Shown piece by piece: positions 44,601 through 62,189 of a DNA stretch of 64,000 nucleotides (position 1 is its first letter; each line of letters starts with the position of its first letter). Under the pieces are notes generated by a model. The model was not told where the DNA came from and did no database searches. It saw nothing but the letters and a program-made list of their open reading frames with translations. Position numbers and translations under genes: made by a program. Origin of the DNA: an uncultured Candidatus Saccharibacteria bacterium (lineage in GTDB: Bacteria; Patescibacteriota; Minisyncoccia; Phycocordibacterales; UBA9973); contig CAYREQ010000004.1 of the NCBI GenBank assembly GCA_964423445.1, positions 2,700 through 66,699 of the forward strand. The letters are read 5' to 3'.

Positions 44601-45035
44601 ACACCTGCTCCAAAAATTTCACCTACACCTGAAGAACAAAAGATAAAAATAGAAACACAAATGGATTTAATAGAAGAATATCCAGAACTTAAAGGTAGTC
44701 CCTTTATAAAAAATCCTCCATCTGGTATGTCGGGGGCAAAAATAGTTGAAATTACTAAACTATACAATGAAAATGTTGCAAAACTATCAGGAAATGACCC
44801 TGAAAACTGGTCTTATGTAAAAGATGTCCCGACTAAAAACTTTTTAGGACAAAAAGTTGTTCAAGGAGATAAAATGGTTCCATATCTTAATAAACTCAAA
44901 GAAATAAGTGGTCTAAATCCTGAATATAATGTTATAGATGGCGATGAATCCATAGAAAAATATATGGTAAGAGTGCATGAATGGGCAGTAAAAAATAATA
45001 AATTGGGTGAAGTAAAGAATATAAAGATAGAATAA
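41625..45035 (+). CDS. Large (1136 aa) multi-domain protein with zinc ribbons, a coiled coil, Gly-zipper membrane segments, a Pro/Thr-rich linker and a C-terminal globular domain
   Basis: Three CxxC-x-CxxC ribbons (CSSCGRIQEATAVFCGSCGKPM and FCPFCGKEQNNEAVFCGFCGEKIP), Gly-rich hydrophobic segments (GLVLGGAGIRAGAKILPWIAGASAGVATL) and a TP-rich linker (TPIKTPSGSPTETPAVKSSPTSTPTPENTETPKPSPTKTP). Confidence 0.5.
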   Translation: MPKEKFIILKPIQDKPKVSKKKEGGINDYKEKVPTYKERVIVTRSNGEIEDDWELMSVGDGKAVVEKEDISSGERIRKVIPENELRFVKDKNKNPEVLKYIEDAKNTVACSSCGRIQEATAVFCGSCGKPMNKTEEPVKKETVSVFCPFCGKEQNNEAVFCGFCGEKIPGLENTNEEVDSPDAGELMDKALKNINRVTSKEKEVKLTDVEFNQMLEEDAEKWRDDIKTFKLDLEKLLPPEFNNLTPIQKQKVLQDSKKRIVDIVKADAQTQYSEELKKRMQENIGAKWKYQGKIMTGIRNIKTSIKSSFTKERDIKNTENETYLKIINSEEGKKLITEDLQRLVEIVGKQKVHLNYKGEMYVNYLNVYSEIPDNERTEEQEKIYSDFNIRAGKFSNMPYEWGQEKEKKYWGNRKKYEEAKAEYEHARNEVLKIKSELKGNEIALIEMLKADNSIKLEQLLNTHPEFEKALDDFTKTAGWREKLKSIGSAANTLSGKNMINRGLVLGGAGIRAGAKILPWIAGASAGVATLSTAIATPIAGGVIGFYRGKFKAKETLQERQKGARYGQKDESAEKVATADATRLAARLQDLVNEIALLDGEQKAKKLANLAVRIEHSIGKIEKGQVNFGNAKSSLVNQFNLVNALNQAVALKELNSSDTHIEVKNRIESLLKNVGENIAENTSKAQKSFVRKQAWKGALIGGGLAGVGYGVRYLTENLIFSTETPSVKEDVLSKNTNTGVKTPIKTPSGSPTETPAVKSSPTSTPTPENTETPKPSPTKTPGVVDDSTVKDADKAPAKVENFVNKGITIERGGSIKAISNLQKQLKAEYPDISKAPKNIQDFVNADPTKKAIELGFYDPTKKAESALVQKGSVLKFDSTGKLLFGKPDVDGNIAELGDKYTGKMLDSDRPKIIEERPRVRRIRQNVIPKNIENVKMPKSTDTIDLPQSKPSDNITLRPENKIPEKPKDIDVNTIVKEQAPAVAADAPVTDAKPTPAPKISPTPEEQKIKIETQMDLIEEYPELKGSPFIKNPPSGMSGAKIVEITKLYNENVAKLSGNDPENWSYVKDVPTKNFLGQKVVQGDKMVPYLNKLKEISGLNPEYNVIDGDESIEKYMVRVHEWAVKNNKLGEVKNIKIE

Positions 45036-47167: not shown

Positions 47168-47923
47168 ATGAAAGCAAAAAAATCACTAGGTCAAAACTTT
47201 TTAAAATCAAACTTGGCACTCAAAAAAATAATTGAGGTAGGAGATATAATACCTACTGATATAATTTTAGAAATAGGACCAGGAAAGGGGGCACTCACAG
47301 AGAAGCTCTTGGAAAAAGCAAAGACTGTAATTGCGGTGGAAAAAGACAATAAACTTTTTACTTTTTTAAAAAATAAATTTGAAAAAGAAATTAAAGAAAA
47401 AAAATTAATTTTATTAAACGAAGATATTTTAGAATATAAAATTAAAAATAATGAATACAAGATAATTGCAAACATCCCTTACAATATCACTGGTGCAATT
47501 CTAAAAAAATTTCTGACAGAAAAAAATCAGCCAGATATGATGATACTCATGGTCCAACACGAGGTAGCTAAAAGAATCGTAGCAAATGACAAGAAGGAGA
47601 GTCTACTCTCTATCTCAGTAAAAGCATACGGTGAGCCAAAAATGGTGATGAAGGTTCCTGCCAGATATTTCTCTCCAGCACCAAAAGTAGACTCCGCGGT
47701 GATAGCTATAAAAAATATTTCTCGCAAAATATTCAAGGAAAACAAGATTTCTGAAGAAAAATTTTGGGAAATCGTAAAATTAGGCTTTGCTCATAAAAGA
47801 AAAAAGCTCTCTGGGAACCTAAAAAGTGTTAATTTTAATAGAAAAGAAGATTTTGCAATCTTAAAAGACAAAAGACCTGAAAATCTTTCTATTTTAGACT
47901 GGATTTCTATAACAAAATACTAG
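47168..47923 (+). CDS. rsmA: 16S rRNA (adenine1518/1519-N6)-dimethyltransferase
   Basis: LGQNFL start, the SAM motif ILEIGPGKGALT and the NIPYNIT catalytic motif. Confidence 0.85.
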   Translation: MKAKKSLGQNFLKSNLALKKIIEVGDIIPTDIILEIGPGKGALTEKLLEKAKTVIAVEKDNKLFTFLKNKFEKEIKEKKLILLNEDILEYKIKNNEYKIIANIPYNITGAILKKFLTEKNQPDMMILMVQHEVAKRIVANDKKESLLSISVKAYGEPKMVMKVPARYFSPAPKVDSAVIAIKNISRKIFKENKISEEKFWEIVKLGFAHKRKKLSGNLKSVNFNRKEDFAILKDKRPENLSILDWISITKY

Positions 47924-48261
47924 AGAGAAGTACCTATTGTATTTATAACACCTGTAACAGGAATAGAAACTGGGCCTAAATTACACACTCCTCCTGGAGT
48001 ATACGAGCCTAAAACCCAAGATCCTTGTTTTATACTGTAATATGAATATATCATAGAAGGAGGTGTTAGACTCAGTAAGTAGGTGCCAGGCCTAGGCAGT
48101 GGACCCACGGTTAACATGAGACCATTGGTACAAGGTGTGATTAACAAAATAGGCGCACCAAACCCTACTAGTGCGTAACTTTTTTGATAAAAAAGCAAGT
48201 TTGCATACACAACTAAAATCAAAATAATTAGTATGTAAAAGATGTGGTTAATCGTTTTCAT
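47920..48261 (-). CDS. Small membrane-anchored Gly/Pro-rich protein
   Basis: N-terminal TM helix (IFYILIILILVVYANLLF) and a second hydrophobic stretch. Divergent from the T4SS-like cluster. Confidence 0.35.
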   Translation of the reverse strand: MKTINHIFYILIILILVVYANLLFYQKSYALVGFGAPILLITPCTNGLMLTVGPLPRPGTYLLSLTPPSMIYSYYSIKQGSWVLGSYTPGGVCNLGPVSIPVTGVINTIGTSL

Positions 48262-48405
48262 AGACTAATTCTACATTAAAAAAATTCTTATGCTAATACA
48301 CTTATCAACAGGTGTATTTTTATAGTTTGCTTTTTAAAAAAGTGTTACAATATAAGCATAATTAAATTAAATTGGTTAAAACAAAAAAAGGTAATTTTTA
48401 TAGCC

Positions 48406-49275
48406 TTGGGGGTGGTTTTTATCTTTGTACTTTTTCTAACAAAAAATGAAACTGTATTTAAAAATCAAATAGAAAACAATGGACTTGTTTTTAATAGCAA
48501 TGACAAAGTAGGGGATTTGGTAAATAGAGATACAGATTTAGATGGAGTTCCAGATTGGCAAGAAAGTCTCTATGGTACTGACCCTACCAAAAGAGATACA
48601 GATGATGACGGAGTGAGTGACGATATAGAAATTGCTAGATTAAGTAAACAAAATCCAGTAAATGGAGAACTTGATCTAAGTATAGAAAACAAAGAAGATA
48701 AGACTATGACGGGACAATTGTCAAAAGAATTATTTTCTACCATTGCTACACTAAACCAGACAGGGGCAGTAGACCAAGACACAGTAGATACATTAAGCGC
48801 AAAACTGGCTGAAAAAATACAAAACCCTTTAAATATAAGGACATACACAATGTCTGATATAAAAATTTCTACTAGCGATGATAAACAATCAGTAAAAGCT
48901 TACAATGATGCTTTGAATAAAATTTATGCAAAATACCCTGTAAAAACTACGTTTTTTGATGTACTAGATAAATTTATAATTGATGAAGATACAGTAGATG
49001 AGAGTGCACTCAAGGATCTTGATTTCTTAATCAAACAAACTACTAATATAAAAAATGAAACCATAAAAATTCCTGTACCAGCAAGCTTGGCTATATTGCA
49101 TTTAAATGTATTAAACGCTATGGAAAAAGTAATCGATAATATGAGCTCCGTAAAATTTTATGATACTGACATTGTGGTAGCTATGGGTGGCATAGTCCAA
49201 TACAGTGAAAATGCAAGTGCACTGGAATCAGCTGTAGGTGAATTGGATTTAAAAATAAATCAAAGATTAAAGTAA
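48406..49275 (+). CDS. Membrane-anchored protein with thrombospondin-type-3-like Ca-binding Asp repeats (first gene of the T4SS-like cluster)
   Basis: N-terminal TM helix followed by DTDLDGVPDWQESLYGTDPTKRDTDDDGVSDDIE (DxDxDG repeats). Confidence 0.5.
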   Translation: MGVVFIFVLFLTKNETVFKNQIENNGLVFNSNDKVGDLVNRDTDLDGVPDWQESLYGTDPTKRDTDDDGVSDDIEIARLSKQNPVNGELDLSIENKEDKTMTGQLSKELFSTIATLNQTGAVDQDTVDTLSAKLAEKIQNPLNIRTYTMSDIKISTSDDKQSVKAYNDALNKIYAKYPVKTTFFDVLDKFIIDEDTVDESALKDLDFLIKQTTNIKNETIKIPVPASLAILHLNVLNAMEKVIDNMSSVKFYDTDIVVAMGGIVQYSENASALESAVGELDLKINQRLK

Positions 49276-49320
49276 AAAAACACTTCACCATAGAATAAAT
49301 AAAGGTTATAATATATAAAA

Positions 49321-50802
49321 ATGATTTCTAGTAATACAACAAGTAAAAAAATAATATCTACTCTTCTGGTAATTTTTATTTTATTACCAAATGTATTATT
49401 TATACTTCCACAAAAAGCAATTGCTCAAGAAGAAGCTGTTACAGTGCCTGTCAGCGACATCGGTAAACCTGCAGTAGTCACTGCAAAATCGAGCTTTTGG
49501 AGTAGAATTTTAAATGGCACCACAGCAGCAAAGACCAGTGTTTCAGCTGGAACAGATCTAAAGCAATGGGCATTGAAAATAGCCGAGGAAGCTCTGCGTA
49601 ACCTGGCGAAAAAGTTTTTACAAAAACTGACTGAAAGTACTGTAAATTGGATAAACGAGGGTTTCCATGGAGCCCCACTTTTTGTGGAAAATCCTAAATC
49701 TTTTTTCAAAGATATCGCAAAATATGAAATTAAAACTTTGGTAAGTAGAATCGGCTATGATAATAGAAATTTCCCATTTGGAAAAGGTTTTATTATGAGT
49801 GCGATCCAAGGATATAAAAATACTTTTGAGAGAAATGCTCAATACTCTCTGAGTAAAGTCATAAGTGACCAACAATTTTTAAATAATTATAGAAATGATT
49901 TTAATGTCGGTGGCTGGGATGGTTTTCTACTAAACACTCAGTTCCCGCAAAATAACCCGATAGGTTCACAGCTTATGTATTCTGATTACTTGGCGAGCAA
50001 GCTTCCAGAAGTTGATACAGCAAAAAATAAAATACAAAAAACCTTAGAACAAGGACAGGGTTTTCTCTCTCCTCAGACATGTCCATCAAATCCTAAATAC
50101 AATAATGCTGTAAATGAATTCAAAAGACCTACTTTTAAACCTACGACCCCCCCACCTGTATATCAAGATTGTTCTCAATATGAAGAAGAAGGGAACACTG
50201 CAGACCTTGCAATATGTGAAAGGGCTAACGCAGCACTAGAAGAAGCATATAATTTAGATGTCGGCAGTGAAAGATTATTGTGGAATGAAAAAAACTTTTG
50301 TCCAGGTGGACTAGTGGCTACTACTCCTGGCTCAGTGGTGGCAAATCAAATAATGACTGCTACTTCATCTGCTTTTAGGCAAGGGGAGCTCGGTATGGCC
50401 ATGGGAAATAGCTTGTCTGCAATCTTTGATGCATTACTCAATCAATTTATGTCTAAAGGTTTGACTGCAATAAAAAGTAAAATTTATGATAAACCAAAAG
50501 AGGGTGATAGAGACGACTTTAGTTATTATGGAAACACTTTTGGTGATGTACAGACGACAAATAGTGGTACTAAATTTATTTGGAGTCAGATAAAAGATCC
50601 AGTAAATGATATAGACAAGCTAGAATATGACGGAACAAAGTTTATAGATAAAGAAGGATTAAAAGAACCTGCTGATCCTTTATCCTGCCCGGCAGGACAG
50701 ACAGGCACACCTCCGAATTGTATAAAAGTATTACCGACTAGCTGTGACTTAGGCGATGGTACTCTTCGTCCAATCCCAGAATGCAACCCAACAATAAATT
50801 AA
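49321..50802 (+). CDS. Secreted/cell-surface protein
   Basis: Signal anchor IISTLLVIFILLPNVLFILP, then a 460-aa domain with conserved Cys pairs and no TM helices. Confidence 0.5.
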   Translation: MISSNTTSKKIISTLLVIFILLPNVLFILPQKAIAQEEAVTVPVSDIGKPAVVTAKSSFWSRILNGTTAAKTSVSAGTDLKQWALKIAEEALRNLAKKFLQKLTESTVNWINEGFHGAPLFVENPKSFFKDIAKYEIKTLVSRIGYDNRNFPFGKGFIMSAIQGYKNTFERNAQYSLSKVISDQQFLNNYRNDFNVGGWDGFLLNTQFPQNNPIGSQLMYSDYLASKLPEVDTAKNKIQKTLEQGQGFLSPQTCPSNPKYNNAVNEFKRPTFKPTTPPPVYQDCSQYEEEGNTADLAICERANAALEEAYNLDVGSERLLWNEKNFCPGGLVATTPGSVVANQIMTATSSAFRQGELGMAMGNSLSAIFDALLNQFMSKGLTAIKSKIYDKPKEGDRDDFSYYGNTFGDVQTTNSGTKFIWSQIKDPVNDIDKLEYDGTKFIDKEGLKEPADPLSCPAGQTGTPPNCIKVLPTSCDLGDGTLRPIPECNPTIN

Positions 50803-50803
50803 A

Positions 50804-53674
50804 ATGAAGAAATTTTTTACATACATATTAATATTTGTCACAGTATTACAGCTAGTTATTCCACCTAGTCCTGCGCAAGCAGAAAGCCCTACGGATAAAG
50901 GTGATTGTGCTATTCCTGGAGCCACAATGACAAACGTCACTAGGGAATTTTGTAAAAATAGTGGAGGTACATTTAAAGCCTTTGGATCTACTACTACACC
51001 AGTCTCTACAGAAAGCCCTACTGATAAAGGTGATTGTGCTATTCCTGGAGCCACAATGACAAACGTCACTAGGGAATTTTGTAAAAATAGTGGAGGTACA
51101 TTTAAAGCCTTTGGATCTACTACTACAGGTGGACCGGGCGGGACCCTTGGAGATACAGGCTCAGCTGCGGCTCCTGGAGACGCTCCAAAAGATCCAAATG
51201 CTGATATTTTTGGAAGCTGTAGTGGATGGAATCTTGTTGTAGCTTGGAACGTCACTGGTTGTGTGGTAAGAGCATTTCATCTTGTATTTATGGTATTACC
51301 ATCTATGGTTTTATACCTTACAGCATATATATTCAATGCTATGCTCGCCCTAACTCTCGGTACTGTTTTATATAAAAATGGTTTTTTACCAGAAGCTTGG
51401 AGAATAGTGCGAGACTTTTCAAACATCTTCTTTATACTGGTTTTATTATATATATCTATAAAAATGATTTTAGGCTTGGGTGGAGCTGAAGTAAAAAAGA
51501 TGATAGCCCAAGTCATAGTGGCTGCTCTACTCATAAATTTTTCTATGTTTATGACTCAGGTAGTCATAGACGCTTCAAACATGCTTGCTTTAATTTTTTA
51601 TAATAAAATCCAAGTCACTTCTCAAACATACACCCCTTTTATAAGTACAAAAAATGGTGTACAAGATAAAGATATCGCTGGAGCCATCGCTTCTGGTTTT
51701 AACCCAGCTAAATTTATCAACCCTGCTGATGTGGCAGAAATTAATAATAAAGCAGTAACTAGTGGAGGTTTATTTTATGACCTAAAAAATATAGCTAAGG
51801 ACCCAAGTACAACAATAAACCCACTCAGACCTCTCGACAACACTACAACTAATTTAAAAATAGGTTGGGCTGTAGCAAAAAGTGCTCTAACTGGTGGTGG
51901 AGATGAAAAAACTTTTCCACCATCTATCGCACTGGCAATAATTTTTACAGCCTGTGCGGTCTATCTCTTTGCATCATATGCATTTTTTATTGCTGGATTA
52001 GCATTTATTGGTAGATTGATAGAGCTCTGGATGCTGATTATATTTTCACCTTTTGCTTTTATGTCTTTATCTGTACCAAAATTGAAAGGCATAGAATATC
52101 TGGGATGGGATGCATGGCTAAAACGGCTACTTGCAGTGGCTTTTATGGCTCCTGTTTTCATGTTCTTCCTACTATTAATATCAAAACTTGTACAAATAAA
52201 TATATTCAAAGGAATGGAAAATATTCCAGGGCAAACTCCAATTACAATTCCTCATGTACTTGTAATGCTTATAATTCCAGCAATTATATATATCAGTCTT
52301 CTTTGGAAAGCTGTGGACTATGCAAAAAAGGGAGCAGGAGAATTCGGCTCTGCCATAATTAAATACGGACAAATGGCAGCTGTGGCAGTGGGTGGACTAG
52401 CTGTGGGTGCAGCTACGGGTGGAGTAGGATTGGCTGCTAGTTCCACCCTTGGAAGCCTTGCTGCAAAGACAGCAAGCAGCAGCTCTCTACTTAAGGCATC
52501 AACTCAAAAAGGAATAGGTGGATGGGCAGCAAGAATGACTCTAAAGGGTGCAGAGTATGGAGCAAATGCATCCTTTGATGCTAGAAAACTTCCTGGTGTT
52601 GGTGGAATGATGAAAAAAATGGGTATGAAGACAGAATCTTCTACTATTACAAAAGCTTTGGGTCTAAGTAGTGCTGGTGGATATGAAGGCAGAAAGAAGA
52701 GAATGGAGGAAGAAAGAGAGAAGAGAGAAAAACAATTAAAAGTAAGAGGTAGTGACCCACTAATGCATGAACTACACAAAGAACAAGAAAATCTACAAAG
52801 TGCAGAAAATAAAGTGGCTGAATGTTTTAGACAAATAGATGACGAGATTGAAACATGGGAATCAAAGAAACGTCAAGCTGTAAATGGTAGTGCTGATGAT
52901 GTAAAAGCTGCAGAAAAATTAAAAGAATTAAATGAACTAAAAGGGTCTATAAAAGCTGGTGTTATGCCTATGGTGCTTAAATACACCGAGGGGGCATTTA
53001 AGGGTGAATTTAAAGACGCAAATGGCAACTATAACACAATGAAGGAAAAAGATCAGACTGGTAAAATGATTGATATTTATGCTACAAGCAATGGCAAGAT
53101 AGCTGAAAAGGCTGTTGAAGAATATGAAAACAAAGTAAAAGATGGTGAAAAGACTGAGACAGAAGCAGAAAATGCATTAACGGAGGCTCAGCTAGCTATA
53201 AAGGCAATAAAAGAATCTGAAGTGAAAGCTAAAGAAGCAGCAGATGCAAGAAAAAAAGCAGAAGAAGAACAATTGGCAAGACCTACAAGTACTGATGCAA
53301 ACAATGCCCTAAAAACTGCAATTGAAAATGAGACAAAAGCTCTTAAAGAATTAGAAGATAACAAGGAAAAAGCACCAAAATTAGATATAAAAGAACTAAT
53401 AAAAAACCATGAATCAGCAAAAACTAAACTTTCTGAACTTCGTTCTAAGCTAGAAATAACAAAAGAAATAACAAAAGGTGGAACTGGAGCATCTATAAAA
53501 GAAATGAAAAATATAATAATACCTGGAATTAAAACAAAAATAAGAGATATTGAAAACAGCTGGAAATGGGCGGAAGCTGATAGGATTGAGGGTAAAATGC
53601 TATTTAAAAATATTAACCATGAATTAGCACACAAAATGAGAATGGCCGCAGATGTAACAGAAGTAAAACATTAA
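50804..53674 (+). CDS. VirB6/TrbL-like polytopic membrane protein with N-terminal tandem Cys-loop repeats and a C-terminal coiled-coil extension
   Basis: Signal peptide, two 43-aa repeats (ESPTDKGDCAIPGATMTNVTREFCKNSGGTFKAFGSTTT), then about 8 TM helices in a roughly 400-aa core, then a roughly 400-aa K/E-rich coiled coil. This is the architecture of TrbL/VirB6-family proteins. Confidence 0.5.
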   Translation: MKKFFTYILIFVTVLQLVIPPSPAQAESPTDKGDCAIPGATMTNVTREFCKNSGGTFKAFGSTTTPVSTESPTDKGDCAIPGATMTNVTREFCKNSGGTFKAFGSTTTGGPGGTLGDTGSAAAPGDAPKDPNADIFGSCSGWNLVVAWNVTGCVVRAFHLVFMVLPSMVLYLTAYIFNAMLALTLGTVLYKNGFLPEAWRIVRDFSNIFFILVLLYISIKMILGLGGAEVKKMIAQVIVAALLINFSMFMTQVVIDASNMLALIFYNKIQVTSQTYTPFISTKNGVQDKDIAGAIASGFNPAKFINPADVAEINNKAVTSGGLFYDLKNIAKDPSTTINPLRPLDNTTTNLKIGWAVAKSALTGGGDEKTFPPSIALAIIFTACAVYLFASYAFFIAGLAFIGRLIELWMLIIFSPFAFMSLSVPKLKGIEYLGWDAWLKRLLAVAFMAPVFMFFLLLISKLVQINIFKGMENIPGQTPITIPHVLVMLIIPAIIYISLLWKAVDYAKKGAGEFGSAIIKYGQMAAVAVGGLAVGAATGGVGLAASSTLGSLAAKTASSSSLLKASTQKGIGGWAARMTLKGAEYGANASFDARKLPGVGGMMKKMGMKTESSTITKALGLSSAGGYEGRKKRMEEEREKREKQLKVRGSDPLMHELHKEQENLQSAENKVAECFRQIDDEIETWESKKRQAVNGSADDVKAAEKLKELNELKGSIKAGVMPMVLKYTEGAFKGEFKDANGNYNTMKEKDQTGKMIDIYATSNGKIAEKAVEEYENKVKDGEKTETEAENALTEAQLAIKAIKESEVKAKEAADARKKAEEEQLARPTSTDANNALKTAIENETKALKELEDNKEKAPKLDIKELIKNHESAKTKLSELRSKLEITKEITKGGTGASIKEMKNIIIPGIKTKIRDIENSWKWAEADRIEGKMLFKNINHELAHKMRMAADVTEVKH
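50882..51127 (+). repeat. Intragenic tandem duplication; 129-bp unit, two copies, one mismatch
   Basis: Direct comparison: 50882-51010 and 51011-51127 differ at a single base (acggat versus actgat) and encode two 43-aa Cys-loop modules. Confidence 0.85.
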
Positions 53675-53684
53675 AATTTATTTT

Positions 53685-54182
53685 ATGACTGAAGAACTAA
53701 AAAAAACAACAGAAGAAGAAATAGCGAGACTTCCTAAAGAAATAGGGGAGGCTGTAAATAATTCTAATTGGGTAAAAATCACGGAAGAAATAGGCAAAAA
53801 ATATTCTTTTTCAGAAAAAGAGATTACAAATCTACAAGCAGAAACTGCAATAATTTTAGTAGGAGCTGAGGATTCAGATTTATTTGCAGAAAATATTGAA
53901 AATAATGTAAGAACAACAAAAGAAAAAGCTGAAAAAATTTCAGCTGAAATATTTGAAAAAATATTTATTCCTATAAATGGTATTATTGAGGGAAAAATTA
54001 AAAATAATATGCAAGGAAAAGAAATGAACTGGCAACAATCTATAAACTTTATACTTTCTGGTGGAAATTATTCTGTTCTACTAGAAAACCCAACTCATAA
54101 AGTTTCCACAGAACCACAAAAAGTAAGTAGTGTTTTGGGTGCAAAAAGTATGCAGGATATAAAAGACAAATTGGTGAATTAA
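53685..54182 (+). CDS. Hypothetical protein (T4SS-like cluster)
   Basis: 165-aa ORF co-directional with the cluster and separated by 10 nt. No TM helix. Confidence 0.4.
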   Translation: MTEELKKTTEEEIARLPKEIGEAVNNSNWVKITEEIGKKYSFSEKEITNLQAETAIILVGAEDSDLFAENIENNVRTTKEKAEKISAEIFEKIFIPINGIIEGKIKNNMQGKEMNWQQSINFILSGGNYSVLLENPTHKVSTEPQKVSSVLGAKSMQDIKDKLVN

Positions 54183-54194
54183 TAAAAAAATAAT

Positions 54195-54971
54195 ATGAAC
54201 AACGATAATACAGTAGATTTACTACAAATAAAAATAGAGAGAGCAAAAGAACAGCTACCAGCTGAGACATTAAATGCTATCGCTGCAGTAGATTGGCGAG
54301 CAGCTATTATGTCTATTCGAGAGAAAAAAGGCTACAACTTTGAGCAATTGGGTGCCTTAGAGCTAGAAACAGAATTACTTTTATGCGGTTTAGTCAGCTC
54401 AAATGACTATCCCAAAGAAATCCAAAGGAGGATGGATATCTCTAGAGCCGAAACAGATGAAATAGTGAATGAGATGAATATGCTGGTTTTTAAAAAAATA
54501 AAAGAAGAGATAATAAAAAACGCTGAAAGAAAAAAAATCTTTAGAGAAAATAAAATGGAACAGAAATCTCTAGAAGTAGAAAAAATTCCTCCCGCTCCAG
54601 CAAAAACAATTGAACCAAAAGATACTGCTATATTAAACCGAGCAGGGATAGATGTGGTAAAATCTGAAATGATACCTACAGAAAAGATCGTAGAAGACAG
54701 AAATACTATTTTAAACAAAATAGAAAACCCAAACAGGGCGGGAAGTAGTGTAGTCGAACCAATGCGAGGCGAAGCGGGTACGCCAGTCATGAGTAATATA
54801 AGCTCAATGTTGCAACAAAAAATCATCAGTTCTGTCCAAGTGCCTATAATAAAGACAGAGCACACACTAGAAAACATAAAAAAGGAAAGTCTTCCAGTGG
54901 TAGAAACTCCAGAAATTACAAGTGGCTATGCATCCAAAAAAGACCCGTATAGATTATCACCGGATGAATAA
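54195..54971 (+). CDS. Hypothetical protein (T4SS-like cluster)
   Basis: 258-aa ORF tightly packed in the cluster. No motif recognised. Confidence 0.4.
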   Translation: MNNDNTVDLLQIKIERAKEQLPAETLNAIAAVDWRAAIMSIREKKGYNFEQLGALELETELLLCGLVSSNDYPKEIQRRMDISRAETDEIVNEMNMLVFKKIKEEIIKNAERKKIFRENKMEQKSLEVEKIPPAPAKTIEPKDTAILNRAGIDVVKSEMIPTEKIVEDRNTILNKIENPNRAGSSVVEPMRGEAGTPVMSNISSMLQQKIISSVQVPIIKTEHTLENIKKESLPVVETPEITSGYASKKDPYRLSPDE

Positions 54972-54979
54972 AATTAATT

Positions 54980-55408
54980 ATGCAATTTAAAGTTCCACAA
55001 TTTTTAGAAATAGAAGACAAAATTTTTGGCCCATTTACTTTTAAAGAGTTTATCTATTTGGTAGGAGGTGGGGGCATGTGTTTTGTTATTTATAAGTTAT
55101 TGGGTTTATTTTGGGGAGCAATACCTATACTATTAGTAGGTGGTTTTGCTTGTATGCTTACTTTTTACAGGCCAAACAATAAACCCTTTTTAAATATGAT
55201 AGAAGCTGGTTTTAATTTTACCTTGCAGAGCAAACTATATATCTGGAAGAAACGAAAGATAAAAAATGATACTAAATCAACTTCAAATATAGTGAGTGAG
55301 GATAAAAATTCAGCTATGGCGGAAAGTGGTATGCGGTTGAGCGGAAACAAACTTCGAGATTTGGCATGGAGTTTGGATGTTTTAGATTTGAAAAAAGAGG
55401 GGAATTAG
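54980..55408 (+). CDS. Small two-TM membrane protein, PrgI/VirB3-like candidate
   Basis: N-terminal FGPFTFKEFIYLVGGGG followed by two adjacent TM helices, located upstream of VirB4 as VirB3/PrgI usually is. Confidence 0.4.
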   Translation: MQFKVPQFLEIEDKIFGPFTFKEFIYLVGGGGMCFVIYKLLGLFWGAIPILLVGGFACMLTFYRPNNKPFLNMIEAGFNFTLQSKLYIWKKRKIKNDTKSTSNIVSEDKNSAMAESGMRLSGNKLRDLAWSLDVLDLKKEGN

Positions 55409-55475
55409 ACTTTAGATTTTAGTATTATACTAGAACCTAAAGTCTAGCGCCTAAGGCCTAGAAAAAAATAAATAC

Positions 55476-56114
55476 ATGGCATTGAACGCAAAAGCAACTC
55501 AAGAGTTTGTACCTATTAAAGAGGTACGTGATGGCATAATCGTCTTAAAAGACGGGGGTCTTCGTGCTATCATCTTGGCAAATTCTGTAAACCTTTCCCT
55601 AAAATCAAGCGATGAACAAAGAGCTACTATACTCCAATTTCAAAACTTCTTAAACACTTTAGATTTTTCTATACAAATATCTGTACAGTCTAGAAGATTA
55701 GACATCCGACCTTACCTTTTGCTTTTAGAGAATAGAATAAAAGTTCAAAATGAACCACTCTTAAAACTACAAACAAAAGAATATATGAATTTTATAATGA
55801 GTTTTACTGAATCAGTAAACATAATGACAAAAAGTTTCTTTATTGTAGTACCTTATAGTCACACTGTCTTAAAATCTGATTCTGGTTTTTTGGGAAAAAT
55901 CTTTAAAAGAAAAAGTAAAGAAGATAAGCAAGCCGAAAAAGAAGAAGACTTTGAAGAAAAAAAATCACAGCTCGAGCAGAGAGTAGGAGTAATACAGCAA
56001 GGACTTTCTCGTTGTGGTATAAAATCAGCAAAACTAGGCACAGAGGAAGTGGTAGAAGTATTCTATAAAGTTTTCAACCCTGGAGAAGTAGAAGGTAAAA
56101 TAAAATTAGAATAA
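55476..56114 (+). CDS. Hypothetical protein with VirB4-N-terminal-domain-like motifs
   Basis: IKEVRDGIIVLKDGGLRAIILANSVNLSL...LDFSIQISVQSRRLDIRPYL resembles the conserved CagE/TrbE/VirB4 N-terminal region. Its stop lies 5 nt before the VirB4 start. Confidence 0.35.
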   Translation: MALNAKATQEFVPIKEVRDGIIVLKDGGLRAIILANSVNLSLKSSDEQRATILQFQNFLNTLDFSIQISVQSRRLDIRPYLLLLENRIKVQNEPLLKLQTKEYMNFIMSFTESVNIMTKSFFIVVPYSHTVLKSDSGFLGKIFKRKSKEDKQAEKEEDFEEKKSQLEQRVGVIQQGLSRCGIKSAKLGTEEVVEVFYKVFNPGEVEGKIKLE

Positions 56115-56118
56115 ATAT

Positions 56119-57981
56119 ATGATGGATTTTTTTAAAAACTTATTTGGTAGAAAAAATAAACTCGGTGGAGGTGCTATTTCTGCTGGAACACAAGCTTCTA
56201 TCATGCCAGTATTGCCAGGGGAGATATATGAATCAGCAAATATTGAACTCCAAGACATCATCGCTCCTTCTGCGTTAAAAATTGAATCAAAATCCATAAA
56301 CCTAGGTGAAAAAATTGCTCGTACTTTTTTTATAATTTCTTACCCGAGATTTTTAACTGACAATTGGTTTTCTCCAATCATAAATTTGGATAAAGTTTTT
56401 GATATTTCTATATTTGTCCACCCGATTGATACCTCATTGGCACTCCGACAATTTCAGAAAAAGGTGGCGGAAGTTCAAAGTCAGATAAATGTAAGGGAGA
56501 AAAAAGGTATGGTAAGGGATCCTATGCTAGATACTGCATATCAAGATTTGGAAGGTTTGCGTGATAACCTGATTCAAGCCCAAGAAAAAATGTTTGATAT
56601 GGGTATATATATCACAATATATGCCGACACAGAACTCGAGCTCTTTAAAGTTGAAAATGAAATAAAATCTATGCTCGAATCTAGATTAATCTATATAAAG
56701 CCTGCTTTATTCCAACAAGAAGAAGGCTTTAAAAGCATAATCCCTTTAAATACAGACCTTTTAAATATTCACCAAAAATTAAACTCCGAGCCTTTGTCTA
56801 GTATTTTTCCTTTTGTATCTTTTGACCTGACTTCTGATAACGGAATTTTATATGGAATAAACAGGCACAATTCTAGTTTGGTAATATTTGATAGATTTTC
56901 TCTTGAAAACTACAACTCTGTGACCTTTGCAAAATCTGGTTCTGGAAAATCTTATTGTACAAAATTGGAAATATTGAGATCTCTCATGTTTGATATTGAT
57001 GTGATGGTAATAGACCCTGAGAGGGAATATGAATTTTTATCTGAGGCTGTCGGTGGAAGATATTTCAACATTTCTCTTTCCTCTGATCACCACATGAACC
57101 CTTTTGATCTACCTATGCCGCGTGAAGATGAAACTGCAGAAGACGTACTTCGTTCAAATATCATAAACCTAGTAGGTCTATTCCGATTGATGCTAGGTGG
57201 TCTTACTCCAGAAGAAGATTCGATAGTAGATCGAGCTATCTCTGAGACATATGCAATGAAAGACATCACTCCTGATTCTGATTTTTCCAATATTGAACCA
57301 CCATTATTATCTGACTTTGAAATGGTACTTTCAGGCATGGAAGGATCTGATGCGATAATCTCGCGATTGGCAAAATACACAAAAGGTTCTTGGTCTACAT
57401 TTTTAAACAGACCTAGTAACGTAGACATAAATAAAAAATTCGTAGTATTTTCTATACGAGATATGGAAGACGAGCTAAAACCTGTAGCTATGTATATCAT
57501 CATGCACTATATCTGGAATGCTATTAGAAAAAACCTAAAAAAGCGCTTACTTGTAGTGGACGAAGCTTGGTGGATGATGAAATCCGAAGATACTGCTTCT
57601 TTCCTTTATTCAATGGCAAAAAGAGGAAGAAAATATTATCTAGGTCTAGCTACTATTACTCAAGACGCTGCAGATTTCATGAAATCTCCTTATGGTATTC
57701 CTATTGTCACAAACTCTTCAATACAAATTCTCCTAAAACAATCACCGACTACAATAGATGTATTGCAAAAAACCTTTAGCCTGACTGACGAAGAAAAATA
57801 TTTACTTCTAGAGTCTGGAGTAGGGGAAGGCATCTTTTTTGCTGGATTAAAACACGTAGCTATTAAGATAGTAGCTTCATACACAGAAGACCAAATCATA
57901 ACTTCTGATCCATCCCAAATACTTTCAAATAGAAAAGCAAAGGAAGATTATGAGACCACTGTGAGTGAGGGAAGATTGTAA
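56119..57981 (+). CDS. virB4: VirB4/TrbE/CagE-family type IV secretion ATPase (Gram-positive PrgJ/TcpF-like)
   Basis: The N-terminal IAPSALKIESKSINLGEKIARTFFIISYPRF...SPIINLD pattern, Walker A FAKSGSGKSY and Walker B LLVVDEAWWMM. Confidence 0.8.
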   Translation: MMDFFKNLFGRKNKLGGGAISAGTQASIMPVLPGEIYESANIELQDIIAPSALKIESKSINLGEKIARTFFIISYPRFLTDNWFSPIINLDKVFDISIFVHPIDTSLALRQFQKKVAEVQSQINVREKKGMVRDPMLDTAYQDLEGLRDNLIQAQEKMFDMGIYITIYADTELELFKVENEIKSMLESRLIYIKPALFQQEEGFKSIIPLNTDLLNIHQKLNSEPLSSIFPFVSFDLTSDNGILYGINRHNSSLVIFDRFSLENYNSVTFAKSGSGKSYCTKLEILRSLMFDIDVMVIDPEREYEFLSEAVGGRYFNISLSSDHHMNPFDLPMPREDETAEDVLRSNIINLVGLFRLMLGGLTPEEDSIVDRAISETYAMKDITPDSDFSNIEPPLLSDFEMVLSGMEGSDAIISRLAKYTKGSWSTFLNRPSNVDINKKFVVFSIRDMEDELKPVAMYIIMHYIWNAIRKNLKKRLLVVDEAWWMMKSEDTASFLYSMAKRGRKYYLGLATITQDAADFMKSPYGIPIVTNSSIQILLKQSPTTIDVLQKTFSLTDEEKYLLLESGVGEGIFFAGLKHVAIKIVASYTEDQIITSDPSQILSNRKAKEDYETTVSEGRL

Positions 57982-58008
57982 AAATTGTTTTGGGTCTATT
58001 GATTAAAC

Positions 58009-59019
58009 ATGTATAATTATATTATGAACAAAGGGTATATGAAATTTAAATTATTAACGTTGTCACTAATGATAATTTCATTGTTTTCTTTACCTTTTAC
58101 AGCAAGTGCTGTGTCTCCAAGTAGCATTAATGTAGATATAGTGCCACCAACCCCAACACCAGGAGAATCTACCACAATAACCTTGAGTAGTTATGGAAAC
58201 AATCTAGATAGTGCTTTAATATCATGGTTTGTCGCTGGTAAAAAAGTAACTTCTAGTGTTGGTATGAAATCATTTTCAATAAATGCTCCAAATATGGGAT
58301 CAGAAACAAGTGTAAAAGCTGTAATAGATTTACCTGATGGCCCAATAACAAAAACAATTTTAATAAGACCAAATATTATGGTGTTGCTCTGGCAGGCTAG
58401 TGATTCTTATGTACCACCATTTTATCGTGGTAAAGCATTGCCTACAGAAGAAAGCACTATAAAAGTAGTGGCTATGCCTGAAGTAAAAACCAAATTAGGT
58501 CCAGTTAATCCAAAAAATATGATTTATTCTTGGCAATTAAATTATGCAAGCGATGGAGAAAGTACTGGTTATGGGAAAAATACTTTTACCTATACAAATG
58601 ACTACTTGGAAGACTTTGAAAATATTTCTGCTACAGCTACGACCATAGATGGACAGTACTCATCACAAGCAAATATAAATATAAAGCCTCGAGACCCAAA
58701 AATAGTATTTTATAAAAATGATGCAAGTATGGGTATCTTATGGGAACAGGCTCTAAAAGATGGGCATAAGATAGTGGGTGATGAAGTTATCGTAGCTTCA
58801 CCATATTTCCTTTCACCAAAAGAAACTTGGAGTCCAAATCTAACCTGGAATTGGTTTTTAAATGATTCTCTCACAAATAATACATTGAAGTATAGAAAAA
58901 ATTGGATACCTTTAAAGGTGTCTGGTACTGATACCGGTTCAGCTACTTTAAAATTACAAATAGAAAATAAATATCAACTATTTGGAAACATAAGTAAAGA
59001 AATAAGTTTGGAATTTTAA
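58009..59019 (+). CDS. Secreted hypothetical protein (T4SS-like cluster)
   Basis: Signal peptide FKLLTLSLMIISLFSLPFTASA and a domain with beta-rich composition. Confidence 0.45.
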   Translation: MYNYIMNKGYMKFKLLTLSLMIISLFSLPFTASAVSPSSINVDIVPPTPTPGESTTITLSSYGNNLDSALISWFVAGKKVTSSVGMKSFSINAPNMGSETSVKAVIDLPDGPITKTILIRPNIMVLLWQASDSYVPPFYRGKALPTEESTIKVVAMPEVKTKLGPVNPKNMIYSWQLNYASDGESTGYGKNTFTYTNDYLEDFENISATATTIDGQYSSQANINIKPRDPKIVFYKNDASMGILWEQALKDGHKIVGDEVIVASPYFLSPKETWSPNLTWNWFLNDSLTNNTLKYRKNWIPLKVSGTDTGSATLKLQIENKYQLFGNISKEISLEF

Positions 59020-60263
59020 TGATGAAAAAATTTTTACCTTTTATCTTAATACTGGTGATAATCTCTGGTTTTTTTAGTATTACTTCAAAAGTAAGTGCTG
59101 AAGATAAAGGTACTTGTTATAAAAATGCAGGAGAAGTAGTCGGCAATGATGTAACAGAAAAAAAATGTAAAGACGCCCCACCTCTTGGTCTTGGTGGGGA
59201 AGCATGGGGTCCAAATACCACCACTCCACCAGGAGGTGGAGGCAAGCAAACCAATGAAGAGAAATATAGGGCTTGTATAGCAGATGGTGGCTCAGAAGAT
59301 GATTGTAGAAGTTATGTGTTAGCGAGCGATGGTAGCTACCATCTTCTCCAACCATTACCCTGCAAAGCTGATGAACCTAGTTGTGAAGATGGGAAACTTA
59401 CAACTTTTGATCCAGATGGTACAGGAAAACTAGGAGAATACTTGAACTTAATGATAAATCTATTTATAGGTTTATGTGCTGTGACAGCTGTAGTAATGAT
59501 AGTAATGGGAGGTATAGAATATAGTACTAGTGATTTAGTGTCTGGTAAGGCTGCAGCTAAAGATAGAATACAAAATGCTATCTTGGGATTACTATTAGCT
59601 TTATGTTCTTGGCTTATACTTAATACTATCAATCCTGATTTACTTAATACTGAGATTGATATTGGTGGGGCTAGTATTACTTCATACGGAGAAATAACAT
59701 TGGAAGCATTGCCTGATGGTACTTATAGTAGTACTGGAGGAGCTGGAGCCGGGGTGATAGGAAGTGGACAATGTAAAGTACAAACAAACCCAAACAATGC
59801 TTGTAGTCCACAAAAATTGTCTAGTTGTTTTAGAGATAGAGTAAACGAAGCCTCTAGGGTGTGTAGTGTAGAAAGTGCGGGAGGGCAAACAGGAGTAGAA
59901 AGTGGTAGTGATAAATTAGCAGACGGTCGTTCATATTCTGTGGGTCTTTGGCAAATTAATTTAACAGTTCATCAAGTTAGAGACCCAAATACTGGGCAAA
60001 TGCTAGATTGCCCTGCAGCATTTACTGGCAATCGTCGTGGATGTGGTAGGGGAACAGTAGTACCAAGTGGCCCAAATGTTGGACATTGCTCATTTTCAGT
60101 TAGAGATATAAATCTATATAATAGATGTGTGGCGGCTGCAAAAAACCCTACAAGCAATACTGAGGCTGCTTGTAAAATTTACAATCAAACAGGCCATAGT
60201 TTCCAGCCTTGGGGCTGGACAGCTAAAAAAGCTTGCAAGCCTCCAATTCCTTATAAATTATAA
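59019..60263 (+). CDS. Secreted Cys-rich protein with a two-TM hairpin and a C-terminal lysozyme-like (GH23/SLT-type) domain; VirB1/PrgK-like candidate
   Basis: Signal peptide, a Cys-rich N-terminal region, the hairpin LNLMINLFIGLCAVTAVVMIVMGG...AILGLLLALCSWLILNTI, then ESAGGQTGVESGSD...SYSVGLWQINL (the ES...GLxQ pattern of lytic transglycosylases). Confidence 0.5.
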   Translation: MMKKFLPFILILVIISGFFSITSKVSAEDKGTCYKNAGEVVGNDVTEKKCKDAPPLGLGGEAWGPNTTTPPGGGGKQTNEEKYRACIADGGSEDDCRSYVLASDGSYHLLQPLPCKADEPSCEDGKLTTFDPDGTGKLGEYLNLMINLFIGLCAVTAVVMIVMGGIEYSTSDLVSGKAAAKDRIQNAILGLLLALCSWLILNTINPDLLNTEIDIGGASITSYGEITLEALPDGTYSSTGGAGAGVIGSGQCKVQTNPNNACSPQKLSSCFRDRVNEASRVCSVESAGGQTGVESGSDKLADGRSYSVGLWQINLTVHQVRDPNTGQMLDCPAAFTGNRRGCGRGTVVPSGPNVGHCSFSVRDINLYNRCVAAAKNPTSNTEAACKIYNQTGHSFQPWGWTAKKACKPPIPYKL

Positions 60264-60272
60264 ATTTTTAAT

Positions 60273-60788
60273 ATGAAAAAATATATTTTACCCATATTTA
60301 TCTTAATAGTTTTAGTTGGAATTGTATTTTTTCTTTATATAATAAAGAAGGATTCAAATTTAACCGAACAAAAAAAAGACGACATAAAAACACTTGTAAA
60401 AAATGATGTACCTAAAAATAATCTGTTACTAAATGATGGTAGCACTATTCAACTTCCAGAATTTATCACTCAAAATGAAAAAACCACGAAGCTTACCCCT
60501 GAGACTTTTAGAGAAATAGCTGGAGGAAATAATTTAAATTTTTCTATATCATATCTACCTTATAATAAAGAAAATTCACAAATACAATTTACTGTAATAT
60601 TGAATAAGTTGCCCCTATCAAAATCTAGGGTGGAAGCAGAAAATGCCCTTAGGACAAAGCTGGGTTTGAGTAATGAAGAATTATGTAAGTTGGATTTATC
60701 TGTATACGTATTTGGTTGGATAAATAAAGACCTTGCTGGCCAAAACTTAGGTCTATCTTTTTGTGATGGTGCTATGGATTTACCTTAG
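60273..60788 (+). CDS. Membrane-anchored hypothetical protein (possible VirB8-like position)
   Basis: N-terminal TM helix (YILPIFILIVLVGIVFFLYII) and a roughly 140-aa ectodomain. Confidence 0.3.
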   Translation: MKKYILPIFILIVLVGIVFFLYIIKKDSNLTEQKKDDIKTLVKNDVPKNNLLLNDGSTIQLPEFITQNEKTTKLTPETFREIAGGNNLNFSISYLPYNKENSQIQFTVILNKLPLSKSRVEAENALRTKLGLSNEELCKLDLSVYVFGWINKDLAGQNLGLSFCDGAMDLP

Positions 60789-60821
60789 GTATTTATACTA
60801 AACATGTTAAAATAAACATAA

Positions 60822-62189
60822 ATGTCAAAAAGAAACTTTATACTTTTAATACTCATCTTGCTCTTAGCTGTCGCTGGTGTTTTTGGATTTTTATATCTAC
60901 GCTCAGGTACTACTCCTGTAGATGTAGTCAGTGATGGTACAAATTTTCTTTCACAATTCAATCCTTTTTCCAGTAATAGGACAAATGAATCTAATAATAG
61001 TGGTGATTATGTAGTAGACATAAATGGAGATGGAGTAATAAGCACAGAAGAAAAAGCTTTAGTGAAATTAAAAAAAGTTTCTAGTGTTCCTGTGGCTGGT
61101 TTTACTGTATTTAGTAAAGAAAGATTAAAATATGTACCTACTCCTGTTCCTCCTCAAGCTACAGAGCCTATTCAGACAGAAGGGGATGTGGTAGCTCCTA
61201 AAACAGTAAAAAAACCGGCTGTGAAGCCTGTAGCTCCTTTGACTGAGTTTGCCCAAGCGCTCCGATATGTAGAAAAATCTACAGGAAATATTTATCAGAC
61301 GTTTGCTGACAAAATAGAAGAGCGAAGATTTTCAGAAACTATAATACCAAAAATTTATGATGCTTACTTTGGGAACAATGGTCAGTCTGTAGTAATGCGT
61401 CATCTAAAATCAGACGATATAACCATAGAAACTTTTAGTGGTACTATGCCGAAAGAAAAAGTAGGTGAAGACTTAGTAGACCCAAATGTAAAAGGTTATT
61501 TTTTAGTAGATAATATAAAAGATATTAGTGTATCGCCAGACAACTCAAAAATATTTTACTTATCCAGTTTTGGAGAATCAATAATAGGTACAATAATGGG
61601 ATTTACCGACGGCAAAAAAACACAAGTATTTGATTCTGCATTTACAGAATGGAATTCTTTTTGGCCAAATAATAATATAATTACTCTCACTACAAAACCT
61701 TCTCAAGAAGTAGCCGGACATATGTATATGATAGATGTAGCAAAAAAAACCTTTACTAGAATTTTGGGTAATATAAATGGACTCACTACGCTTATGAGTC
61801 CAAATGGAAAACTAGTTTTAGTAGGGAATAAAGACTTGTCTCTATATGTATATAATACAGATACAAAAGTTTATGTAACTCTCGGTGTTAAAACTCTCCC
61901 AGAAAAATGTGTTTGGAATAAAAATAGTGACTTTATTTATTGCGCTGTACCAGCATATATCGATGAATCTTTATATCCTGATGATTGGTATCGTGGTGAA
62001 ATATCATTCTCTGATCAGATTTGGAAAATAAACACAATAGATGGTAGCACTAATATGCTAATAGACCCGCTACTTATCCCGGGTGGGGAAGATGTGGATG
62101 GTGTAAAGCTCGCACTAGATGCAAATGAAGACTATTTATTTTTTATAAATAAAAAAGATTCTTTCCTTTGGGAATTAGGACTTAGATAG
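60822..62189 (+). CDS. Membrane-anchored protein with PD40/TolB-like beta-propeller repeats (last gene of the cluster)
   Basis: N-terminal TM helix, then repeats such as ISVSPDNSKIFYLS and LMSPNGKLVLVGNKDLSLYVYNTDT. Confidence 0.4.
   Translation: MSKRNFILLILILLLAVAGVFGFLYLRSGTTPVDVVSDGTNFLSQFNPFSSNRTNESNNSGDYVVDINGDGVISTEEKALVKLKKVSSVPVAGFTVFSKERLKYVPTPVPPQATEPIQTEGDVVAPKTVKKPAVKPVAPLTEFAQALRYVEKSTGNIYQTFADKIEERRFSETIIPKIYDAYFGNNGQSVVMRHLKSDDITIETFSGTMPKEKVGEDLVDPNVKGYFLVDNIKDISVSPDNSKIFYLSSFGESIIGTIMGFTDGKKTQVFDSAFTEWNSFWPNNNIITLTTKPSQEVAGHMYMIDVAKKTFTRILGNINGLTTLMSPNGKLVLVGNKDLSLYVYNTDTKVYVTLGVKTLPEKCVWNKNSDFIYCAVPAYIDESLYPDDWYRGEISFSDQIWKINTIDGSTNMLIDPLLIPGGEDVDGVKLALDANEDYLFFINKKDSFLWELGLR

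Follow-up and report, generated by a model that had tools for sequence, protein, structure and literature searches.

Gene content and organization of the locus

The window analyzed here is a stretch of 64,000 nucleotides (nt) from an assembly deposited as an uncultured Candidatus Saccharibacteria bacterium (GCA_964423445.1, contig CAYREQ010000004.1, forward strand), in which a locus resembling a type IV secretion system (T4SS) occupies positions 48406-62189. All positions given below are those of the window. The locus comprised exactly 12 co-directional plus-strand open reading frames (ORFs) in the ORF list of the window, in agreement with an earlier sequence-only reading of the same DNA. The intergenic gaps along the locus were 45, 1, 10, 12, 8, 67, 4, 27, -1, 9, and 33 nt. 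The packing was therefore slightly looser than the gaps of 0-45 nt given in that reading, since the widest gap, between the PrgI gene g6 and g7 (55408->55476), is 67 nt. The 12 genes, denoted g1 to g12, are the following.

g1, 48406..49275, plus strand: membrane-anchored surface protein with two thrombospondin-type-3 calcium-binding repeats (DTDLDGVPDWQE and DTDDDGVSDDIE)
g2, 49321..50802, plus strand: secreted protein with a signal or transmembrane segment at residues 11-29 and a conserved N-terminal domain
g3, 50804..53674, plus strand: likely an extended VirB6-like polytopic membrane protein of 956 amino acids (aa), from its topology and an indirect profile link
g4, 53685..54182, plus strand: cytoplasmic acidic protein without transmembrane helices, paralogue of g5 by hhalign
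g5, 54195..54971, plus strand: cytoplasmic protein, paralogue of g4 by hhalign
g6, 54980..55408, plus strand: small membrane protein of the PrgI family, VirB3-like (PF12666)
g7, 55476..56114, plus strand: TrsD-like protein, corresponding to the VirB4 N-terminal domain as a separate polypeptide (VirB4 and TrsD profiles)
g8, 56119..57981, plus strand: VirB4 ATPase of the CD1110 or MPF-FATA type (profiles, PDB match, and Walker motifs)
g9, 58009..59019, plus strand: secreted or anchored protein of 336 aa with three tandem immunoglobulin (Ig)-like or fibronectin type III-like beta-sandwich domains (structure model)
g10, 59019..60263, plus strand: signal peptide, Cys-rich exported region, VirB2-like pilin hairpin, and lysozyme-like domain
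g11, 60273..60788, plus strand: window-specific protein of 171 aa with an N-terminal transmembrane or signal segment
g12, 60822..62189, plus strand: protein of 455 aa with an N-terminal transmembrane helix, a disordered linker of about 50 aa, and a seven-bladed beta-propeller outside the membrane

A VirB4 motor in two parts

The ATPase predicted in the sequence-only reading at 56119-57981 was recovered as g8, which scored 365.5 bits against the NCBIfam model conju_CD1110, above its curated cutoff of 325, and covered profile positions 183-733 of 752. It also matched Pfam P-loop_TraG (1.9e-25) and, among PDB entries, the VirB4 structure 4AG5 (9.8e-39) and TrwK (1.9e-7), and it carries both a Walker A (AKSGSGKS) and a Walker B (LLVVDE) motif. 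The best plasmid VirB4s were 30-36% identical to it. Because its identity to the VirB4s of the 80 best related genomes is far higher, at 74-89%, g8 very likely belongs to the Patescibacteria VirB4 clade nested in MPF-FATA.

The N-terminal part of the VirB4 profile, about 180 positions, is missing from g8 and is supplied by the preceding gene g7. The product of g7 matched positions 102-236 of VirB4_plasma (E 7.4e-11), positions 2-119 of CD1110 (E 2.3e-5), and positions 15-200 of the 201 in TrsD NF041427 (E 7.8e-6). A precomputed match to the TraC-like family PF26593 was also available for g7 on an identical contig of the public Logan collection, while a single-sequence PDB search with g7 returned nothing beyond coiled-coil noise. 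As judged from these profiles, VirB4 is split in two, with g7 as its N-domain and g8 as its ATPase body. The candidate for the VirB8 position in the sequence-only reading, here 55476-56114, thus corresponds to a TrsD-type N-domain and not to a VirB8 analogue. The Logan contig concerned, SRR12487045_109858, is 8.4 kb long and encodes a VirB4 identical to g8, with ORFs of the same lengths as those in the window around it.

The PrgI/VirB3-like protein reported earlier is g6, located two genes upstream of virB4, which matched PF12666 at 32.1 bits (gathering score 27).

A probable VirB6-like polytopic protein

The product of g3 includes a signal peptide, about eight transmembrane helices (residues 144-543), and large hydrophilic domains, among them a Lys/Glu-rich C-terminal tail of roughly 400 aa and a duplicated Cys-pair module. 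This topology fits an extended VirB6. When a profile of the transmembrane core was aligned by hhalign to the metagenomic protein P0099, a match of 95% probability was obtained (E 2.9e-8, 229 columns), and P0099 itself carries TrbL (PF04610) at 27.0 bits, with a cutoff of 25.9, in addition to a pilin domain. A weak match of g3 to the NCBIfam family MMCAP2_0566, a conjugal-transfer membrane family of Mycoplasma, was also observed (E 0.006). An exhaustive HMMER search with the g3 core returned 22,011 representative clusters at E <= 0.001, and the TrbL link was not strengthened among the closest 150 of these. Hence, g3 is likely VirB6-like, as indirectly shown by its profile; the TrbL/VirB6-like assignment made earlier stood in this indirect form and not as a direct TrbL match.

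A tandem duplication of 129 bp was found inside g3 at 50880-51127 (1.9 copies, 99% identical). The duplicated unit encodes an exported module of 39 aa that includes a Cys pair (ESPTDKGDCAIPGATMTNVTREFCKNSGGTFKAFGSTTT), and a segment exposed at the surface may thus have expanded recently.

Conservation and inheritance

Related loci were collected with one genome per species, and the best 80 were compared over flanks of 10 kb, of which 43 had full flanks. A relative of the VirB4 was encoded in at least 591 Paceibacteria species genomes. The best 80 of these VirB4s were 74-89% identical to g8 and came from genomes labelled Paceibacterota, Nomurabacteria, Parcubacteria, and similar. The genes g3, g6, g7, g8, g9, g10, and g12 were present and collinear in all 43 full-flank loci, and g1, g2, g4, and g5 were detected in most of them. 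The degree of conservation differed among the components: the median identity was 84% for VirB4, 72% for TrsD, and 55% for PrgI, compared with 29-41% for the exported proteins. Such a gradient is consistent with a motor that is conserved and surface parts that evolve quickly.

The flanking genes were equally stable, with uvrD-ksgA on one side and jag-yidC-yidD-rnpA on the other in 43 of 43 loci, such that the synteny with relatives, which the sequence-only reading had proposed to compare, extends to both gene order and flanks. In the relatives, rnpA is followed by a 447-aa gene and then a 365-aa gene, which were taken as dnaA and dnaN from their position and size. This neighborhood places the locus beside the replication origin. 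At the level of sequence, these comparisons show a vertically inherited, origin-proximal core locus.

A pilin hairpin fused to an exchangeable, probably wall-active domain

The hairpin of g10 matched T4SS_pilin PF18895 at 31.9 bits (cutoff 26.6, residues 137-204) and the Mycoplasma pilin-like family Mbov_0395 at E 3.6e-4. Its two transmembrane helices were located at residues 144-162 and 184-202, and the C-terminal lysozyme-like domain was predicted to be extracellular; the predicted topology is that of VirB2, with an enzyme outside the cell. The lysozyme-like domain (residues 277-322) matched SLT_3 at E 4.3e-5 and 24.3 bits, below the cutoff of 27. The lysozyme-like hydrolase noted in the sequence-only reading is thus probably present, albeit at a sub-threshold score, and the protein in question is a VirB2-like pilin fused to a putative wall enzyme.

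Among 73 orthologues at the g10 position, the PF18895 hairpin was kept in 61, and BLAST matches to the orthologues were restricted to residues ~103-222 of the window protein. The domain that follows the hairpin varied: NlpC/P60 was found in 13 orthologues, VanY in nine, YkuD in five, Amidase_5 in five, an SLT-type domain in four, and Peptidase_M15_4 in three, and many had no known family. The C-terminal parts of 71 orthologues fell into 22 unrelated sequence clusters, and genome pairs whose VirB4s are at least 90% identical shared the same cluster in only 19% of cases. The exchange of C-terminal domains, which involves at least five classes of peptidoglycan-active enzymes, is largely independent of VirB4 relatedness. 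No mention of the pilin-enzyme fusion or of its turnover was found in the literature searched. In cultured Paceibacterales parasites, proteins with a T4SS-pilin domain are among the most highly expressed genes of unknown function (PMC10936435).

Two copies of the pilin-enzyme gene were observed in some relatives. For example, they flank the propeller gene in the related locus L011 (12871-14619 and 16024-17871) and lie in tandem in L067 (12750-14201 and 14221-15648). Thus, the module is able not only to exchange its domain but also to duplicate.

This turnover would fit a host-facing, exchangeable wall-active module better than an assembly factor acting on the cell's own wall. A bolder proposal, which we regard as doubtful though worth stating, is that g10 is a polymorphic host-directed weapon or key and not an assembly factor of the VirB1 type. 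Under this proposal, a conserved VirB2-like anchor, extracted by VirB4, would display the enzyme on the T4SS filament or at its tip, and the swappable domain (muramidase, NlpC/P60, VanY/M15, YkuD, or others) would suit the chemistry of the present host's wall. The g10 module would then help to set host range in Paceibacteria, and g11 could have come in together with the lysozyme-type module of the window, in an accessory or immunity-like capacity. The exchange of wall enzymes on the pilin anchor, being faster than the evolution of the motor, provides a testable lead on action at the host wall.

Accessory proteins

The accessory proteins matched no curated family, as anticipated in the sequence-only reading; its description of them as lineage-specific did not hold, with about 900-1,100 homologues found for each at E <= 0.001. 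Profile searches of the PDB with orthologue alignments of g9, g12, g3, g2, and g5 yielded nothing beyond coiled-coil noise.

The calcium-binding repeats described earlier were found as two D-x-D-x-D-G-x-x-D-x-x-E motifs in g1 (48406-49275), accompanied by weak TSP_3 and CglD matches. Orthologues of g1, found at the same position in 28 of the 43 full-length loci, have a K-rich N-terminus followed by a transmembrane anchor. In the window, the called start of g1 is a TTG, and no ATG, GTG, or TTG occurs where the orthologues start (48370-48408). The in-frame codons upstream encode LKQKKVIFIA, which corresponds to the Lys-rich segment and membrane anchor of the orthologues. Translation probably begins a few codons further upstream, at a start that is either non-canonical (possibly ATT at 48394) or a mutated TTG.

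No match of the window's g2 protein was found in Pfam, NCBIfam, or the PDB. Its orthologues are longer (527-1094 aa), with variable, adhesin-like C-terminal extensions, and searches of 38 of them against Pfam and NCBIfam returned only scattered single matches, namely T2SS-T3SS_pil_N in four and DUF4141 in one. The neighboring g4 and g5 likewise had no relative in Pfam, NCBIfam, or the PDB. Their profiles aligned to each other in hhalign at 99.5% (E 2.8e-22, 108 columns), a relationship for which a plain BLASTP of g4 against g5 found nothing, and the two genes form a single fused ORF in some relatives.

A TcpC/VirB8-like identity was considered for g9 and rejected, as its structure model consists of three Ig-like sandwiches. 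For g12, the propeller proposed earlier was recovered as a seven-bladed fold in an AlphaFold2 model (pLDDT 80.6, pTM 0.73), with WD40 propellers as the best Foldseek matches (about 1e-10). Among g12 orthologues, a weak PD40 match in Pfam was found in only two of 25, and a few homologues carry PG_binding_1 in place of the linker region.

A second protein considered for the VirB8 position, g11 (60273-60788), had no homologue in any of the 80 related loci, even at E 10. In the relatives, g12 follows directly on g10 (median gap, 5 nt), with no ORF at the g11 position. The guanine-plus-cytosine (GC) content of g11 is 29%, the lowest in the locus. A role as a conserved VirB8 or immunity gene was accordingly rejected (0 of 80 loci, with no ORF there in relatives), and g11 is probably not a core component.

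Flanks and local sequence context

The window has a GC content of 33-38% and encodes housekeeping genes typical of a reduced genome; the locus resembles its surroundings, without a GC anomaly. Upstream lie rpsO, an NYN-domain gene, a gene for a 1136-aa zinc-ribbon protein, uvrD/pcrA, and ksgA/rsmA. Downstream, jag, yidC, yidD, and rnpA are encoded on the minus strand, convergent with the locus, and the window stops just past rnpA. A weakly supported promoter candidate lies in the 144-nt divergent intergenic region before g1.

48333..48362, plus strand: candidate operon promoter, TTTAAA/TTAAAA - 17/18 nt - CATAAT (consensus scan, 9/12 matches)

In a promoter and terminator scan of the region, sites were not enriched over shuffled sequences.

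Several other genes were noted in the surroundings. Between ksgA and the locus, a small divergent ORF (47920-48261, minus strand) encodes a Gly/Pro-rich protein of 113 aa with an N-terminal transmembrane segment. Weakly similar ORFs at this position in two related loci (L001 and L002) encode 333-337 aa, and the window ORF may be a truncated surface protein. In the 1136-aa protein upstream of uvrD (41625-45035), a double zinc ribbon lies near the N-terminus, the central part is hydrophobic and rich in Gly and Ala, and there are linkers rich in Pro and Thr. The related loci yielded no match to it, although its position lies beyond most of the 10-kb flanks compared. Elsewhere in the window, two further wall hydrolases are encoded: a LysM-LysM-Peptidase_M23 protein (27963-29042, plus strand) and an SLT transglycosylase (30005-30847, minus strand) that adjoins a cluster of four tRNA genes. 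Both could also serve T4SS assembly.

Proposed function and alternative explanations

No relaxase or VirD4/coupling protein was found in the locus, its flanks, or the other scanned window ORFs of at least 270 aa. In addition, there were no att-like flanking direct repeats around the locus and no tRNA within 16 kb of it. The only recombinase was a Xer-type tyrosine recombinase (39753-40703, minus strand; Phage_integrase 3.7e-42 with a SAM-like N-domain), located 7.7 kb upstream with housekeeping genes in between, and it is most likely the chromosome dimer resolvase and not the integrase of a mobile element. The absence of a relaxase and VirD4 from the flanks had been stated in the sequence-only reading, which would have been refuted by these genes and att sites around the locus; conserved housekeeping genes were found there instead. 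Together with the VirB4 profile match, these flanks also uphold its view of a chromosomal, non-conjugative T4SS of the Gram-positive type.

Our favored explanation, which we hold with considerable though not full confidence, is that the locus encodes the chromosomal T4SS of the Patescibacteria clade in a Paceibacteria or Ca. Nomurabacteria-like genome, and that it acts in host contact or protein export instead of DNA transfer. Such a system would have been derived from monoderm conjugation machinery of the MPF-FATA type and uncoupled from DNA-transfer functions. The products of the locus presumably assemble into one envelope-spanning machine, in which PrgI would dock both pieces of VirB4 at the membrane, next to the VirB6-like channel. 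The hydrolysis of ATP would then power the extraction and assembly of pilin-like subunits as well as export across the single membrane and the wall, and the Ig-like, propeller, calcium-binding, and large secreted proteins would form or decorate an extracellular part in contact with the host cell. Because the locus lacks a relaxase and a coupling protein and is a vertically inherited, origin-proximal core locus, host interaction is favored over conjugation. By analogy with Southlakia, this would most likely be protein export or pilus-mediated contact.

Several points weigh against this explanation. A VirB8-like bitopic component with an NTF2 fold was not found in the locus, and the single accessory protein modelled nearby (g9) is Ig-like. 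The VirB6 link of g3 runs through one intermediate protein, whose TrbL score of 27.0 is barely above 25.9, and Pfam TrbL had no direct match to g3 or to any of 22 orthologues. Co-transcription of the locus is suggested by gene spacing alone, and the function proposed here is extrapolated from Saccharimonadia. Lastly, T4CP (coupling protein) homologues are common elsewhere in Patescibacteria genomes, according to PMC12102498, and a coupling protein may be encoded far from the locus, outside the window.

A machine for DNA uptake or DNA export, comparable to Helicobacter ComB or the archaeal Ced system, would supply nucleotides or genes to a cell unable to make its own and would need no relaxase, such that the absence of this enzyme is compatible with it. 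The CedB DNA-import profile was matched weakly and in part by the product of g8 (E 3.7e-9), but the match spans about 70 residues and is limited to the generic P-loop region. De novo nucleotide synthesis is missing from Patescibacteria, which speaks for such a machine, and in the class ABY1 the T4SS sits with comF/recG/radA (PMC12102498). In Paceibacteria, however, the neighbors are replication and ribosome genes, not competence genes, and family profile scans found no DNA-binding or ComEC-like gene in the locus. Moreover, the competence of Southlakia depends on ComEC and is dispensable, whereas its T4SS is essential (PMC12857230). DNA uptake or export was therefore considered an unlikely function.

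A housekeeping envelope machine for surface filament assembly or for remodelling of the cell's own wall (growth, division, or the display of an S-layer or pilus), without a direct host role, appears slightly less plausible still. Near-universal presence, vertical inheritance, and the origin-proximal site of the locus all agree with such a role, as do the wall-active enzyme attached to the pilin module and the peptidoglycan-binding domain on some propeller homologues, and essentiality in Southlakia would fit it too. However, if the substrate were a conserved self wall, enzyme classes would hardly be expected to swap rapidly between close relatives, and the exported components evolve much faster than the motor, as expected of host-facing proteins.

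An ordinary integrative conjugative element (ICE) or a decayed remnant of one can be dismissed with near certainty: although the VirB4 falls in the CD1110 family, named by NCBI for conjugative elements, and the core genes follow an order similar to that of a Clostridium conjugation module, the locus occupies the same insertion-free site between ksgA and jag/yidC/rnpA/dnaA in 43/43 full-length loci, its VirB4 identity across the best 80 species genomes indicates strong purifying selection and not decay, and it is accompanied by no relaxase or T4CP (among the scanned window ORFs of at least 270 aa) and by no adjacent integrase, att repeats, tRNA target, or compositional anomaly, with conserved synteny and the lack of att repeats and of a tRNA target leading to its rejection.

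Comparison with known secretion systems

Patescibacteria account for much of bacterial diversity and spend their lives attached to other microbes, a lifestyle for which only a few machines, the T4SS among them, have been shown to be essential. The chromosomal, relaxase-free T4SS of Patescibacteria is already known, including its TrsD, pilins, and origin-proximal site (Wang et al., 2023, PMC10633639; Quiñonero-Coronel et al., 2025, PMC12102498). The novelty that the sequence-only reading attached to the system was accordingly overstated, as the system had been described in PMC12102498 and found essential in PMC10633639. A 2025 review lists the Patescibacteria systems as newcomers to the T4SS superfamily and states that VirB2 subunits are not found in Gram-positive T4SSs except in that of Patescibacteria (PMC12857230).

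The survey by Quiñonero-Coronel et al. (2025, PMC12102498) reports a VirB4 in 2,417 of 3,035 Patescibacteria genomes, and these VirB4s form a clade within MPF-FATA. In that survey, TrsD is the most frequent partner, and VirB2-like pilins (PF18895) are encoded close to virB4. Few VirB6 proteins and almost no VirB8 were detected there, relaxases are practically missing, and T4CPs are seldom adjacent. The neighborhood given there for Paceibacteria comprises dnaA, dnaN, rnpA, ksgA, and rpmH. The locus in the window agrees with the Patescibacteria-clade T4SS in its chromosomal, origin-proximal site beside ksgA/rnpA/dnaA, in a VirB4 with adjoining TrsD-like and PrgI proteins, in its VirB2-like pilin domain (PF18895), and in having no relaxase or coupling protein nearby.

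In Southlakia epibionticum, epibiotic growth requires a homologous cluster that has neither a coupling protein nor a relaxase (Wang et al., 2023, PMC10633639). The order of this cluster in the supplementary tables of that study is VirB6-like, PrgI, hypothetical, VirB4, large hypothetical, lysozyme, and exported Ig-like. The core gene order of the window locus is that of the essential genes SEML1_0005-0013 in the Southlakia ML1 cluster, and over SEML1_0005-0019 the two share a giant, probably VirB6-like membrane protein upstream of VirB4 and, after VirB4, a probable wall hydrolase and an Ig-like protein that is exported. In contrast, Southlakia has six separate small pilins in an array and two VirB6-like genes, whereas the window locus has one VirB6-like gene and a sole pilin module, which is fused to the putative wall enzyme. 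The conserved partners specific to Paceibacteria, namely the thrombospondin-type-3 anchor protein, the beta-propeller, and the g4/g5 pair, belong to no curated family.

Among monoderm conjugative T4SSs of the MPF-FATA type (CTn2/CD1110 type; Clostridium perfringens plasmid pSXP-169_2), the VirB4 is 30-36% identical to g8, and the Firmicutes conjugation module shares the order membrane protein - PrgI - VirB4 - SLT hydrolase. A TrsD-type N-domain protein is also known from the pGO1 subclass (PMC12102498). The conjugative modules differ in having MobC, a relaxase, and VirD4 immediately upstream and in residing on mobile DNA, and the Firmicutes VirB4 is a one-piece protein (783 aa), compared with the split form described here.

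Outside the candidate phyla radiation, matches were also obtained to models from the T4SS of Mycoplasma ICEs, all of them below family cutoffs: the VirB4 model Mbov_0397 with g7 (E 7.4e-11) and g8 (E 2.3e-77), Mbov_0395 with the g10 hairpin (E 3.6e-4), and MMCAP2_0566 with g3 (E 0.006). A pilin-like module, a VirB4, and a polytopic partner therefore also occur together in another wall-less or monoderm lineage, although the Mycoplasma systems are carried on mobile ICEs and transfer DNA.

The wall enzymes described here find a functional analogy in the X-T4SS of Xanthomonadales, which is directed against neighboring bacteria and has peptidoglycan hydrolase effectors (PMC6536674). That system is a diderm VirB/D4 machine with a coupling protein, and its effectors are separate proteins with a C-terminal secretion signal and cognate immunity proteins. 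In the window, by contrast, the putative enzyme and its pilin-like anchor form one protein, and g10 is not followed by a conserved immunity gene. Set beside these systems, the locus is no new kind of machine but a clean Paceibacteria example with a conserved set of 11 genes, to which the present analysis adds two modelled accessory folds and two corrected parts, the split VirB4 and the pilin-enzyme fusion.

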